Shown: positions 16,903 through 22,306, numbered from the stretch's first letter. The stretch: DNA of 64,000 nucleotides from Scenedesmus sp. PABB004 (GCA_014905635.1 JABVCE010000002.1:2046001-2110000), one strand, 5' to 3'. The notes: generated by a model not told the origin, from the sequence alone. Translations and numbers: made by a program.

Positions 16903-19900
16903 TCAGTGCGCCGCGCGCTGCCAGGCGACCTTGCGGTTGGTCTGCAGCAGCAGCACGCAGTTGTGCGGGCCCAGCAGCTCGTCCTTGCGCACGACGCGCG
17001 TCTTGCCCGGCGGCGCGCCGAGCACGCGGCACTCGGCGCGCACAAAGTCGCCTTCGAGCAGGCAGAAGGGCGGGCGCTTGAGCACGGCAAACACGTCCTC
17101 CACGCGGCTGCCCGGCCGGAGCAGCACACAATCGCGCAGCACGGCCCGGCCCGCCGCGGCGCGGGCCTTCGCGTCGACGCCCCAGCCGAGCGCCGCCGCC
17201 GACCCTCCCCCTGCTGGTGGTGGTGCGCGCCCGCGTGGAGCCGGCCGCCGCCGCCGCCACCGCCACCACCGCCGCCGCCGCCGCCGCCGCCGCGCGCGCC
17301 CGCGGCGAGCGCCGCGCACGTCTCGCGGTCGGCGATGGGGAACACCCAGCGCGGCGGCTTGAGCGCGACCGCGGTCGCGAGCGCGGCGAGCACGCCGGTG
17401 CTCCCGAGCGGCCGCAGCACCGCGGCGGAGACCCGCGCGAGCGCGGCGCCCGCGGGCCCGTCGGCCGCGCCGCCGCCGGGCGCGAGGCTCGCCGCGCCGG
17501 CGCCGTCGTCGTAGCGCGCGGCGCCCGCGCGGCGCAGCGCCTGCAGCTCGCGCTCCGCCGCGGCGCTGACTGCCACGGCGGGCGCGTGGGGGTAGGTGGC
17601 AAGCACGGCCTCGATGTGTGCACGCGCGCCGGGAAGGTCTGCCTTGTTCAGGGCCAGGAGGATGGGGAAGCGCGCGCAGAGGAAGTGTGCGACCAGGCGG
17701 TGCAGCTCCGCCTCGCCCCACGCCGCCAGGCTGCTGCTGCCGGCGCCCGGCACGGCGCCGCTCTCCTTGGCGCCGCCCTGCAGGCCCGCGTTCTGCGGCG
17801 GCGACCGCGGCAGCCACGGCAGGGCGGCGACTCAGCTTCCGCCCTCGGGCCCCGGTCGGGTGCGGCGGGCGGCCGCCGGCGCTCCGCCAGCGCACCCCTG
17901 CCGCCGCCACCTCCGCCACCAGGTCCTCCACCCGCACGCCCACGGCGCGCAGCACGGCCGCCACCAGCGCCTGGCGGCGGCGGGCGCGACGGCGGGCGCG
18001 GCGGCGAGGCGCGCGGCGGCGCGTGTCAAGCCGCCGCAGACGGAGAACGTGCCGCGCCGCCAGCGCGGCGCCAGTGCGTGTGCCGCGCGCGCCCCCGGCG
18101 CCCTCCGTCTGCGGCTGCTGCGGGCACGCCTGGGGAGCGTGGTAGCCCGTGAAGAGCCCCGGCAGCCGGCTCGGCCGGCGCAGCACCGACGGCCACTTGG
18201 CGCGCACGTTGGTGAACACCCAGCAATGCAGCTCCTCCCGCACCCACCTGCGGCGCGCGGCGGCGCGCGTGAGCCGCGCGGGCGGGCCGCGCAGCGCGGC
18301 GCGGCGCGCGGCCGCGCCCCGCTCCCGCGCCGCGCTCACGCGACCTCCTTGCGCGGGTCGGCGCCCTCGCCCGGCGCCGCGCCGGCGCCCTCGCTGTCGG
18401 TCGTGCCGCTCGCGTCGACCACATGGATGAGCACGTCGGCGTCAAGCAGGTCGTTGAGGAAGGCGTTGCCCCGCCCCCGGCCCTTGTACGCGCCTGGCAG
18501 AGGTGTGTGTGTGTGTGTGTGTGTGTGTGTGTGTGTGTGTGTGTGTGTGTGTGTGTGTGTGTGTGTGTGTGTGTGTGTGTGTGTGTGTGTGTGTGTGTGT
18601 GTGTGTGTGTGTGTGTGTGTGTGTGTGTGTGTGTGTGTGTGGGTGGGTGGGTGGGTGTGGGTGTAGGTGTGTGGGTGTGTGGGTGTGTGGGTGTGTGGGT
18701 GTGTGGGTGTGTGTGTGGGTGTGGGGGGGTGGGTGGGTGTGTGGGTGTGTGGGTGAGTGAGAGAGAGTGAGTGAGAGAGAGAGAGAGAGAGAGAGAGAGG
18801 GAAAGAGAGAGAGAGAGAGGGAGGAAGGGGGGGGGTCAGCGGGGCCGGCCGGCGCCGCGCCACGCGCCGCACCAGGGACGAGGCCGGCGACGTCCTTGAC
18901 CACCACCGGCACGCGCCGCCACAGCAGCCCGCCGCCCGGCGCCGCGCCCGGCGGCGCCCAGCTGGTGTCGCGCACGAGCTGCAGCAGCGGCCCCACGCTG
19001 CTGAGGCCTGGCGCGACGCGCGAGGGGTCGAAGCCCTGCGCGTACCCGTGCGCCGGCTGCGCGGCGCCGGGCAGGCCCAGCAGCGGGGCGGGGTCGGGGA
19101 GCGGCGCAAAGCACCGGCTGACGTTGGGAGCAATGGTGGTGAAGGGGAAGGGCGCCTCGCGCGCCGCCTCCTCCTCGCTCGCCGGGTCTGCGCGCGGCGC
19201 GGGGGGCGGCAGGTCGGCAGCGCGCGCAGCACACACGCGCGTGCCCGCGCAGGCGCGGCGGCCCCCCCCCCCCCCCCCCCCCCGGCGCCCACCAACGACG
19301 GCGTTGAAAAAGGTGCTCTTGCCGGCGCTGGGCTTGCCGACGAGGCCGATGCAAAAGTCCCACCGCCCGCGCCCCAGCGCCGCGTCGAGGCCGCCGAGCC
19401 CCGGACCGTCGCCGGCGGTGCCTGAGGCGCTGGGGGTGACGTCCGCAGCGCCGGGCGCGGCGTCCGCGGCATCTCCTGCCTCCGCGGCGTCGCCAAAGGG
19501 GCTGGCCTCGTCGCCGAGCGCCCACGGGCGCCAGTGCGCGGCCGCGGCCTCGGCGGTCGCCCGCGCCACGAGCGACAGGTCAACCTCCTCCCGCTCCCAC
19601 CAGGGCGGCGACGGCCCGCCGCCGCTGCCGCCGCCGCCGCCGGCGTCGCCGCCGTCCCCGGCCGCGGCCACAGCGCCCGCCGCTGCGCCCGCCCCGCCGA
19701 GCGCCAGCGCGCGGAGGCCTGGCGCGAGCGCGGCCACATCGCCCGCGCGCCGCGTGCCGAGGTCCTCGGGCAGGTGCGCGTCAATCCACTCCTTGGCCGC
19801 CTCGGCCAGCTGCCACACATAACCACCCTCGCCGGCGACCTCAGCATGCGCGGCCGCGGCCGCGGCCGCGAGCGCGGCGGCCAGCGCGGCGCGTGCCGGG

Positions 19901-22306
19901 TCGTTGCGGCCGAGCGGCCCCTCGACGTCGACAAGCGGCGGCGCGGCGGCGCTGCCGGGGTAGCCCTGGCGGCCGCGCGGCGCGCACGATCGGTGGGCAG
20001 CGGCGGTCGCGCGTGAGCGCGGCCCGCGGCCTTGATGGCAGCCAGCGGTGGTGGCGCCCGCGCCCACGCCTGCGCGCAAGCCCCGCCCCGCCCCGCCCAG
20101 CCGTCCGCACCAGCGGCAGCCGGACTCGCAGCGTGAAGAGCCGACTGGGCGGGCCGCTCGGCGGCGCGTCGTCCAAGCCGCCCTGGCCGCCGGCGTCGTC
20201 GTCGTCGTCGCCGTCGTCGCCCGCCAGCGGATCCGGCTCGCGCAGCTTGATGGTGAACGTCGGCGGCGCGCGCGACAGCACGTGCAGCTCGCGGCCGTAG
20301 ATGGCCTGGCAGCAGCGAGCGGGGCGGCCGGGTCAGCTGGCCGCCGCGGCGCGCTCGGCAGAGCACACCCAGCACGCGCGCCGCACCTGCAGGGCCTCGA
20401 GCTCCTCCAGCTGCAGCTCAGTCGCCTCCCCCCACTCCGCTGCTGCCACGAGCGGCGGCTCTGCAGCTGCTGCGGGGCCCGCTGCAGAGCCCAGGCCGGC
20501 GTCTCCTCGCTGCTGCTGCTGTTGCTGCTGCGGCTGCTGCCGCGGCTGCTGCTGCTGCTGCTGCTGCGGCTGCTGCGGCTGCTGCGGCTGCTGCTGCTGC
20601 TGCGGTTGTGTGGCACTGTGCGCGTGGTGGTGCGACCGCGGGCTGAGCAGGTCCACGTGCTGGTGCGGCGCCCCGCTGGAGTCCAACCGGATGAGCGGGT
20701 GGCGGTGCACCGGCCCTGACAGTGAAGCGGGGGACGCGGCGCGTGAGCCAAGCCACTGCAGCTCGCTGGCTGGCGCCCGCCGCGCTGCGCACGCGCGGCC
20801 CCAGCGCGCCCCCGCCGCGCCGCGCCGCGCGCACCCTTGGTCGCCTTGTCCTTGAGCCCCCGGCGATGCAGCTGCGCCTCGATGCCGGCGGCCGCGCCCT
20901 CCACCGGCGGCGGGCCGCCCGCCCGGGCGTGCGCGCCCGCCGCCGCGCCGCGCGGCCGGTGCGCCGGGTGCGGCGCGTGGCGGACCAGCGGCACCTCGGC
21001 AAAGGGCAGGATGAACTTCAACATCTCCTGCGTCCAGCGCGACTGCTGCGGCACCGCGTGCCCCGAGTCGTGCACCAGCTGCACCCTGCGGCGCGCCGGC
21101 GGCGGGCGGGCGCGGAGCTGATGCCGGCTGCGGGCGCGCGCCGGCGGCTGGCGGCGGCCGCAGCGCGCGCCGCGCCCCTGGCCGCAGCGCGGCGCGGCGC
21201 GGGGCCGCCGGCGCGCCTGCCGTGCGGGGCGAAGCACGCTGCCAGCTGCTCGCTGTCCTCAACCGACATGAGCGGGTCGTTGGACCCCATCATGTGCAGG
21301 CTGGGAAAGGGCAGCGGCGCCGCGAGCCGCGACGCGGGCGCGACGTCGCCGCCGCCGCCGCCGTCACCGCCGTCTCGCCGCCTGAGCAGCGCCGGCGGCA
21401 GCAGCTTGCCGAGCGGCTCCGGCACGTAGCCGCCGGCGAGCGCGACGAAGCGCAGCGACCCGAACCGCTCCGGGTGGGCCGCCGCGTGCGCGGCAAAGAG
21501 AAAGGCGGCGGCTGCGCCGTTGCTGAAGCCCAGCACGCCGTCAAACTGCAGCGGGGCGTCTGCGCCCAGCGCCACGCCGCAGCCCGCCGCGCCGCCGCCG
21601 ATCGCGCAGCCGCCCGTGGCTTGGCCGTTGGCCTGGCCAGCACCGGCGCCCGCGGTGCTGCCCAGGCTGCTCAGGCTGCTGCTGCTGCCGCTGCTGCCCG
21701 GCGGCGGGGGCGCCGGCGGCGGGCCCGCCGCCCAGGCGTCGCACAGCACAGCCAACGATGCGGCCCAGTCGCGCAGCACGACGCCCTCCCAGCCGGCCGC
21801 CATCATCGTCGCCACCTCCGCCTCGCGCTCCCGGCCGTGCGGCAGCGACGGCTGCGCCTGCAGCGCCGCGACCTCGGCCGACTGCAGCGACGCCTGGCGC
21901 CCCAGCACCGCCGGCGGCGGCGCCGCCTCCTGCTGCTGCTGCGGCGGCTCGTCTGCCGGGCTCACGTGCCAGTGCCGCCACCACGCTCGCATGGGCACCG
22001 CCTGGCCCTCGACCAGCGGCAGCGTGTGCGGCGCCGACACAAAGTGCAGGTCCTGCACACGTGCGGCCGGCGGTGGTGTGCGGGCGCGGGCGGCGCGGGC
22101 ACGGGCGGGCTGCGGCGCAACCGCTGCAGCAGCCGCGGCGCCGCCCGCACCGCGATGGCGCGGAGCTTCTTGGCGAGCGTGCGCAGCCGCTGGCTGAACA
22201 CCTCGCCGTCCTGCCGCGAACCGTGCATGCAGAGGAGCTGCAGCTTCCGCGACGGCGCGGCGGCGCCCGCGCTGCCGCCGGCAGCGGCGGCGGCCGGCGG
22301 CGCCAT
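16903..22306 (-). CDS. Multidomain fusion: FSH1/OVCA2 serine hydrolase + RWD domain + Obg-family GTPase (Ygr210/archaeal YchF-like) + TGS-like C-terminus
   Basis: FSH1: [52 protein letters not shown]...LRVRLPL|GYP...[12 protein letters not shown]. GTPase: [54 protein letters not shown]. Splice phases keep one frame from FSH1 into the GTPase. Confidence 0.82.
18503..18820. repeat. Compound microsatellite (GT)n / (GTGG)n / (GA)n within an intron
   Basis: About 135 bp of pure GT repeat, then degenerate GT and GA tracts. This is the source of the HTHT/CVCV ORF artefacts. Confidence 0.97.

Follow-up and report, generated by a model that had tools for sequence, protein, structure and literature searches.

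An FSH1 hydrolase-RWD-Ygr210-type GTPase fusion gene in Scenedesmus sp. PABB004: gene model, family, and a possible connection to Gcn1

The 64,000-nucleotide stretch of Scenedesmus sp. PABB004 DNA analyzed here (GCA_014905635.1, JABVCE010000002.1:2046001-2110000; hereafter the window) carries on its minus strand, at 22306..16903, a gene whose 12 exons join into a protein of 1303 amino acids (aa) that ends at a natural stop. We consider it very probable that this is one intact nuclear gene of a very GC-rich green alga and that it encodes, from the N terminus onward, FSH1 hydrolase, linker, RWD domain, conserved helix, Ygr210 GTPase, and beta-grasp domain, and we tentatively propose for its product a role with Gcn1. 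The start codon ATG lies at 22306-22304 and the stop codon TGA at 16905-16903 (both minus strand), and the span given by the original prediction, which was made from the sequence alone, proved exact.

Gene model

The exons were first traced by eye on the sequence and then joined by script. The joined exons reproduce, letter for letter, residues 1-1295 of P0001, the NCBI entry "GTP-binding protein [Scenedesmus sp. PABB004]" (1637 aa), so the splice reasoning of the original prediction matches the deposited model that far. P0001 was found with exon 2 as the query (99% identity, 100% coverage), and the window is therefore the P0001 locus. G+C content is 74-82% across the whole window and nearly all reading frames are open. 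A family hidden Markov model (HMM) built without the window protein scored the exon model at 764-773 bits, far above chance, with a match running from HMM position 3 to position 848 of 848. The 11 introns measure 98, 152, 119, 81, 145, 105, 379, 92, 159, 103, and 59 nucleotides (nt); 10 of them have GT-AG borders and one, intron 9 (18129-17971, as annotated), has GC-AG. The parts of the gene are as follows.

Exon 1, 22151..22306, minus strand: aa 1-52; contains the start codon and codes for the N-terminal FSH1 strand and helix (LLCMHG...); Pfam FSH1 3e-5, profile positions 3-32.
Exon 2, 21238..22052, minus strand: aa 53-323; core of FSH1, interrupted by a large low-complexity insert, with Ser229 and Asp311; Pfam FSH1 9.9e-12.
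Exon 3, 20835..21085, minus strand: aa 324-407; FSH1 C terminus with His333, then the start of the nonconserved linker; second in-phase donor at 20995|20994.
Exon 4, 20387..20715, minus strand: aa 408-517; His/Gln-rich linker and first RWD helix; alternative in-phase acceptor at 20755.
Exon 5, 20111..20305, minus strand: aa 518-582; RWD beta-strands and an acidic insert, inside the Pfam RWD match at 507-641 of P0001.
Exon 6, 19293..19965, minus strand: aa 583-806; RWD YP motif (19962-19957), C-terminal RWD helices, Ala/Gly-rich linker with the conserved helix, and G1.
Exon 7, 18873..19187, minus strand: aa 807-911; G2 FTTIAPN (19143-19123) and G3 DVAGL (18894-18880).
Intron 7, 18494..18872, minus strand: 379 nt; compound (CT)n/(CA)n microsatellites.
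Exon 8, 18340..18493, minus strand: aa 912-962; conserved block after G3 (...VVDASG).
Exon 9, 18130..18247, minus strand: aa 963-1002; beginning of the helical insert; annotated GC donor (CCAG|GCGTGC).
Exon 10, 17896..17970, minus strand: aa 1003-1027; helical insert.
Exon 11, 17270..17792, minus strand: aa 1028-1201; YGR210-like G4 domain with NKAD at 17648-17637; Pfam YGR210-like_G4 3.5e-17.
Exon 12, 16903..17210, minus strand: aa 1202-1303 and the TGA; C-terminal beta-grasp (TGS-like) domain.

Two of the introns lie in repeats. Intron 7 is almost wholly microsatellite, including about 130 bases of uninterrupted CA repeat. The last intron (17211-17269, minus strand) is only 59 nt long and sits in a stretch of (GGC)n; the conserved C-terminal domain can be reached only by a change of frame at this point, and the alternative to a real mini-intron is an assembly indel in the repeat.

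Hydrolase, RWD, and GTPase domains

The N-terminal part of P0001 matches Pfam FSH1 (PF03959) at 5.9e-23 and 82.1 bits, against a gathering cut-off of 21, and when 13 pieces were scanned separately, exon 1 and exon 2 still reached 24.2 and 45.4 bits, respectively. The GFSNG motif occupies residues 227-231 and places the nucleophile at Ser229 (21524-21522); Asp311 (21278-21276) and His333, within SGHAVP (21060-21058), complete the predicted triad, and all three columns are invariant in alignment A1, which holds 18 sequences. The intact FSH1 hydrolase of the original prediction, with its GFSNG, D, and H, is thus borne out at these residues, and judging from its sequence this part of the protein is a serine hydrolase of the FSH1/OVCA2 type, with a predicted activity and with Ser, Asp, and His of the triad all in place. 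In searches of the Protein Data Bank (PDB), the family profile matches yeast FSH1 (1YCD) at 8.4e-22. Yeast FSH1 and human OVCA2 are stand-alone proteins of about 230-245 aa, whereas the window hydrolase holds a low-complexity insert of about 130 residues and forms the N-terminal module of a GTPase.

The alignment also bears on the 3' end of exon 2, since P0001 is shorter there than the homologs in A1, by about seven residues in the segment from the hydrolase Asp to the His. A GC donor at 21217|21216 (GGCAG|GCGCGC), 21 nt farther downstream than the GT donor of the annotation and in frame with it, restores seven residues conserved in the homologs and scores 74.1 bits against the corresponding segment of the family HMM versus 65.0 bits for the annotated donor, a gain of 9 bits. 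Exon 2 probably uses this GC donor, in which case the protein would have 1310 aa instead of 1303.

Residues 507-641 of P0001 match Pfam RWD (PF05773) at 4.6e-8 and 33.6 bits (cut-off, 22.8), over profile positions 1-110 of 112; like the FSH1 assignment, the RWD assignment stands above its gathering score in a profile search, the kind of search that the original prediction had named as a possible refutation. Single-exon Pfam scans gave no RWD match because the domain is split over exons 4 to 6. It starts at residue 507, with GYPG at residue 583, and the helix-1 Glu and YP columns, both represented in the window protein, are invariant in A1. Two further details of the original prediction recur in the finished model: a His/Gln-rich linker, encoded in exon 4, leads from the hydrolase to the RWD domain, and the second half of that domain (GYPG) shares exon 6 (19965-19293) with the G1 motif GKPSAGKS. 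The best PDB match of the family profile in this region is human RWDD1 (6e-17), followed by GCN2 (2.8e-15 and 1.8e-14), with RNF25 (1.9e-12), RWDD3 (1.1e-6), and IMPACT (2.9e-5) as further RWD proteins.

For the GTPase, P0001 matches Pfam MMR_HSR1 at 1.2e-10 (a weak MMR_HSR1 match at G1 also appears in the single-exon scan) and Pfam YGR210-like_G4 (PF08438) at 57.7 bits and 1.9e-15, and exon 11 by itself reaches 63.2 bits against the latter (cut-off, 24.7). G1 comprises residues 792-799 (19338-19315), and G4, at residues 1076-1079, reads NKAD; it is of the GTP type, as had been claimed. The G1, G2, G3, and NKxD columns are all invariant in A1. The closest structure to the family profile is 1WXQ, at 9.1e-73 versus 4.5e-16 for the best YchF, and the predicted fold of the homolog P0101 ranks the two in the same order (1.8e-20 versus 1.2e-11). 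By these sequence and fold comparisons the GTPase is a member of the Ygr210 subfamily of Obg GTPases. The protein behind 1WXQ, Pyrococcus horikoshii PH0525, shares with the window protein a G domain with a helical insert and a YGR210-like G4 domain; PH0525 and Schizosaccharomyces pombe C428.15 are, however, stand-alone Ygr210 GTPases that lack the FSH1 and RWD modules, and we take yeast YGR210C to be another of this kind.

The fold of P0101 (879 aa) was modeled with AlphaFold2 from a 39-row alignment, giving a mean predicted local distance difference test score (pLDDT) of 82.4 and a predicted template modeling score of 0.60. Its match to 1WXQ has a target TM (template modeling) score of 0.78; the model also matches 1YCD (3.2e-12), and its further matches are to YchF proteins and acyl-protein thioesterases. 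It contains a confident helix at residues 385-410, between the RWD domain and G1.

The C-terminal domain is the one element whose earlier label found weak support: the FSH1-RWD-Ygr210 GTPase architecture was upheld, but the TGS domain said to follow it had no Pfam match, and its fold match is tied with those of ubiquitin-like folds. Pfam TGS (PF02824) does not appear among the matches of exon 12 at E<=1 or of P0001 at E<=0.01, and a phmmer search of the PDB with exon 12 returned only chance-level rows, none of them relevant. An AlphaFold2 model of the exon 12 product (98 aa; pLDDT, 80.3) contains helices and a small sheet. Foldseek found no match to this model at E<=0.001, the best match of fair probability being a YchF C terminus (0.72). 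The top row in VIA-align is the TGS domain 2KMM (Z, 5.5; root mean square deviation, 3.7; 65 residues aligned), and the next TGS rows are ThrRS (Z, 4.7), DRG1 (4.7), and SpoT (4.6), with ubiquitin-like folds within 1 Z. "TGS-like beta-grasp" is a fair name for what was modeled, and the label TGS proper is weakly supported by the same model.

Distribution of the fusion

A HMMER search of 1.84 billion representatives, using as the query a 364-aa open stretch that covers exon 6, intron 6, and exon 7, gave 192 matches at E<=1e-3. Among the 150 matches listed, we scanned with Pfam (E<=1e-4) the 65 that were at least 424 aa long and left out 85 shorter ones, mostly fragments. The largest class, 31/65, combines FSH1, RWD, and MMR_HSR1, most of these proteins also having YGR210-like_G4; a further 6/65 have FSH1 and MMR_HSR1 with no RWD call, and 3/65 have FSH1 and RWD only. 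FSH1 is missing from the 13/65 with RWD and MMR_HSR1, from the 10/65 with the GTPase only, and from one protein with RWD only (1/65); one more has nothing called (1/65). A second search, with a compact RWD-GTPase protein of Phallusia as the query, gave 2963 matches at E<=1e-30. The best 120 of these, sorted by their precomputed Pfam lists, comprise 52 with FSH1, RWD, and GTPase, 5 with FSH1 and GTPase, 39 with RWD and GTPase, and 24 with the GTPase only. When seven named relatives were rescanned, five had all four domains, the Branchiostoma protein had RWD and GTPase, and the Diplonema papillatum protein had FSH1 and GTPase with no RWD match.

The full fusion is present in green algae (Pedinophyceae sp. 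YPF-701, CAG9464162.1; Tetraselmis; Chlamydomonas Cre12.g538200), choanoflagellates (Salpingoeca rosetta, PTSG_12765 / XP_004990426.1; S. infusionum; Choanoeca flexa), the ichthyosporean Ichthyophonus hoferi, about 10 chytrids, the stramenopile Tribonema minus, the rhizarian Plasmodiophora brassicae, the dinoflagellates Durusdinium trenchii and Polarella glacialis, and the kinetoplastids Trypanosoma brucei (XP_829747.1 / Q380Z6) and Phytomonas. Among the best 120 of the 2963 matches, RWD and GTPase occur without the hydrolase in amphioxus, an ascidian, molluscs, an annelid, and a nemertean, and the GTPase occurs alone in dictyostelids, oomycetes, and Basidiobolus. The relatives in Chlamydomonas (Cre12.g538200), S. 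rosetta, T. brucei, and YPF-701 have the same order of FSH1, RWD, MMR_HSR1, and YGR210-like_G4 as the window protein, whose gene is, by sequence, an ordinary member of the family to which Cre12.g538200 belongs. The window protein is longer, at 1303 aa versus about 760-1000 in Cre12.g538200 and the other relatives, and its hydrolase, linkers, and G domain owe the extra length to inserts rich in Ala, Gly, Gln, and Pro, which DNA of such high G+C content would lead one to expect.

In a quick maximum-likelihood tree of the GTPase part (41 rows, 424 columns; Chrysoparadoxa was dropped because the G1 pattern used did not find its motif), the window GTPase groups with P0022 and Tetraselmis on a branch that is not starred (Shimodaira-Hasegawa-like approximate likelihood ratio test support, 88-91). 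All FSH1-bearing forms fall on one side of a starred branch, and the four architecture labels require 4 changes on the tree versus a mean of 16.5 when shuffled. The tree is unrooted, and gain and loss are therefore indistinguishable.

Within the same tree, the GTPase-only forms P0239, P0251, P0254, P0256, P0257, P0259, P0276, and P0278, from dictyostelids, oomycetes, and Basidiobolus, make up one long-branched starred clade. This clade and the animal forms with RWD and GTPase together lie on one starred branch (99), apart from the FSH1-bearing forms, and the position of the clade inside that group is not settled by the tree. The grouping gives a hint of two ancient lineages, as opposed to domain losses scattered over the tree.

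A possible role at Gcn1

RWD proteins reported to bind GCN1 are GCN2, IMPACT, DFRP2/RWDD1 (Gir2), and RNF14 (PMC10931611). Rbg2, a GTPase of the Obg family, is reported to be recruited to Gcn1 by Gir2, and the Gcn1-disome structure contains the two of them (PMC10931611; PMC3510508). Because of these two precedents, and because the RWD domain of the present family is most like those of RWDD1 and GCN2, we tentatively propose, as an analogy that may well fail, that this domain anchors the GTPase to stalled ribosomes that carry Gcn1, making the protein a single-chain analog of Gir2-Rbg2. In such a scheme the RWD domain would attach the GTPase to Gcn1 on ribosomes that have stalled or collided, the polypeptide would be the one-chain counterpart of the Gir2(DFRP2)-Rbg2(DRG2) pair, and GTP binding and hydrolysis would gate the engagement; with less assurance, the esterase domain might act on an ester or thioester substrate near the Gcn1 site. 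The two systems have in common an N-terminal RWD domain and an Obg-family GTPase with a C-terminal beta-grasp domain. They differ in that Gir2 and Rbg2 are two proteins whereas the window encodes one polypeptide with an esterase added, in that the window GTPase is of the Ygr210 type (best match, 1WXQ) and not of the DRG type, and in the DFRP domain, which the Pfam scans did not find in the window protein. The reading of the family in terms of Gcn1 and ribosome stalling, which the original prediction had put forward, is in our view a plausible one, and its suggestion that the fusion might serve as a Rosetta stone for the Ygr210 GTPases appears reasonable from the sequences.

Several observations weigh against docking at Gcn1. 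The DFRP domain is not listed in Pfam scans of P0001-P0003 (E<=0.01), of the 65 relatives (E<=1e-4), or of the seven named relatives (E<=1e-3), and a Ygr210-type GTPase is not the DRG-type partner that Rbg2 represents. The family profile is matched by the RWD domains of RNF25 and RWDD3 too, and resemblance in this domain is therefore no specific mark of a Gcn1 binder. In the Chlamydomonas strain lf5-2, Cre12.g538200 is deleted, and the part of the paper that we could consult reports no flagellar connection (PMC12711092); the deletion argues against an essential function in that strain. As for the esterase, OVCA2 and FSH1 favor long-chain alkyl esters in vitro (PMC7077851), a preference that points to lipid-like rather than tRNA-linked substrates.

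The same observations lend themselves to a different account, to which we assign a serious but somewhat less than even chance: the fusion is real, but its RWD domain is not a Gcn1 adaptor and instead regulates the GTPase intramolecularly or binds an E2-like or other partner, the whole being an acyl-ester or thioester hydrolase, its activity or location switched by the GTPase, without any role at stalled ribosomes. The long-chain ester preference just cited would fit such an enzyme, as would the structural neighbors of the hydrolase, which include acyl-protein thioesterases 1 and 2 and carboxylesterases. The RWD domains matching the family profile include ones with other partners (RWDD3 with UBC9, and RNF25), and the lack of a detected DFRP domain tells in the same direction. 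It is harder to reconcile this account with RWDD1 and GCN2 as the top RWD matches or with the ribosome links of the other Obg subfamilies, namely, Obg, DRG, YchF, and Nog1, as given in a review (PMC8629797). The persistence of the RWD-GTPase core in animals after hydrolase loss also argues that the GTPase is not merely a regulator of the esterase.

An extension of the Gcn1-docking proposal, which we think improbable, is that once the RWD domain had docked on Gcn1, the esterase would attack an ester bond within the stalled complex, for example that of a peptidyl-tRNA, an aminoacyl-tRNA, or an acylated factor, making the protein a ribosome-rescue or quality-control enzyme. A tRNA-ester substrate in particular is a bold possibility that nothing supports. 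If this extension were true, the family would represent an unrecognized enzyme present in most eukaryotic supergroups and reduced to its RWD and GTPase parts in invertebrate animals.

One gene rather than two

The fusion itself might be suspected of being the work of a gene predictor that wrongly merged two genes, one for an FSH1 hydrolase and a separate one for an RWD-GTPase. The deposited model gives some cause for this suspicion, as P0001 wrongly reads through a conserved stop into a downstream porin-like open reading frame (ORF); the linker between FSH1 and RWD is nonconserved and of low complexity, and at this G+C content open frames and in-phase GT/AG pairs come cheap. Yet the ninth and last Met of the 1303-aa model is residue 345, and residues 346-1303, comprising linker, RWD domain, and GTPase, hold none. 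Nor does the frame of the RWD exon contain an ATG upstream of the RWD domain, which would leave an independent RWD-GTPase gene with no start codon in any exon, and the FSH1 frame runs without a stop from the FSH1 domain to the RWD exons.

Other genomes speak against a merge as well. In the close relatives P0002 and P0003, from two other assemblies, FSH1 and then the start of RWD lie within one ORF. In P0003, unrelated stretches break conserved motifs at the places where window introns 2 and 4 sit; this entry has the appearance of an ORF called without splicing, with its hydrolase, linker, and RWD parts still in a single frame. Dozens of distant orthologs, several of them from transcripts, are fused in the same order. 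The fusion ORFs from MMETSP, Salpingoeca infusionum, and Choanoeca flexa are transcript derived and marked complete, and therefore one mRNA spans all of the domains in those species.

Three points qualify the single-gene model in Scenedesmus. The grounds for joining exon 3 to exon 4 are phase, the absence of a start codon, and the orthologs. Across this linker there are two in-phase splice paths, 20835>20715 (annotated) and 20995>20755, and the family HMM does not decide between them (773.3 versus 771.6 bits). Finally, the same annotation pipeline over-merged the 3' neighbor, and since its models are untrustworthy alone, the claim of a fusion was rested on other evidence. In our judgment that evidence leaves the two-gene account very little room: as far as sequence can tell, the FSH1-RWD-GTPase fusion is not a gene-merging artifact, and the single fused gene of the original prediction holds on the strength of the exon model, the Met-free RWD-GTPase part, and the conservation of the fusion in many eukaryotes, transcript-derived ORFs included.

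The porin-like reading frame downstream

Homologs in A1 end a few residues past the motif TN[KR][KR]xAWQ. In P0001, an annotated intron that splices from 16924 removes the TGA at 16905-16903 and runs into the porin-like ORF, whose own Met is at 16718-16716, 184 nt past the stop, and which extends to about 14850 (minus strand). On comparison of these sequences, the porin-like tail of P0001 is a wrong extension, the true stop being at 16903 and the porin-like ORF being separate. That the annotated 1637-aa protein should be correct, with the porin-like part in the same polypeptide, we regard as extremely improbable: it is the deposited form, the inter-ORF gap is just 184 nt, and TGTAA is not seen near the stop, but the window has its TGA right after the conserved C-terminal motif, several homologs (P0101, P0069, P0045, and P0022 among them) end within about 15 residues of that motif, 0/17 aligned homologs have a porin-like extension, the porin-like part begins with a Met of its own and scores 20.2 bits against Pfam Porin_3, below the cut-off, and no porin domain occurs in the Pfam results for the 65 scanned relatives, the best 120 of the second search, or the seven rescanned relatives.

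TGTAA is the usual green-algal poly(A) signal. It occurs 9 times in the 64 kb (3.6 expected) and not once on the minus strand between 6661 and 28552, so that both this gene and the porin-like ORF lack one close by, and it is therefore uninformative on transcript ends inside or after this gene. The joining of the two ORFs in P0001 is either an annotation merge or, with a gap as short as 184 nt, a sign that they are a candidate bicistronic pair.

Neighboring genes

The YchF gene with an NVSE motif that the original prediction had contrasted with the NKAD of the fusion is real: a YchF-type gene with this ATPase-type G4 lies on the plus strand at about 31100-32100 (~31.1-32.1 kb), with a TGTAA at 32849 on the same strand. 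An open stretch at 23027-24661, also on the plus strand and divergent from the hydrolase-GTPase gene, has a match to class I tRNA synthetases of the W/Y type (tRNA-synt_1b, 2e-19) and a KFGKS motif.

Implications for the Ygr210 family

The fusion is neither rare nor new, and it is already in public annotation. Its architecture can be read from the precomputed Pfam list of the NCBI protein of this locus, there are UniProt/NCBI entries for many species, and a supplement legend of a 2025 paper quotes a JGI definition of Cre12.g538200 that calls the architecture "conserved in algae and invertebrates" (PMC12711092). In the literature that we searched, as far as its accessible text goes, no paper was found that treats the function of the fusion, and that supplement legend is the only place where the architecture is named. 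The portion of the DRG review at hand merely lists Ygr210 as a subfamily (PMC8629797), and in the table that we could consult of another paper, the Ygr210 row gives yeast YGR210C only and has no entry for Arabidopsis, rice, Cyanidioschyzon merolae, or human (PMC4263083). Within these limits, the Ygr210 type is the one Obg subfamily without an assigned role in the literature searched.

For the Scenedesmus genome, the gain is a corrected gene model, with a stop at 16903, a separate porin-like ORF, and a probable GC donor for exon 2. The pointer to Gcn1 comes from the family as a whole, as recorded in NCBI, UniProt, and JGI/Phytozome, and not from the window in particular. Tractable members are to be found in Chlamydomonas (where the gene is deleted in lf5-2), in Trypanosoma brucei, and in choanoflagellates. 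An RWD domain covalently attached to a Ygr210 GTPase in most eukaryotic lineages would point, in a way that is cheap to test, toward Gcn1 and the biology of stalled ribosomes, and the esterase that accompanies it suggests a chemistry to seek.

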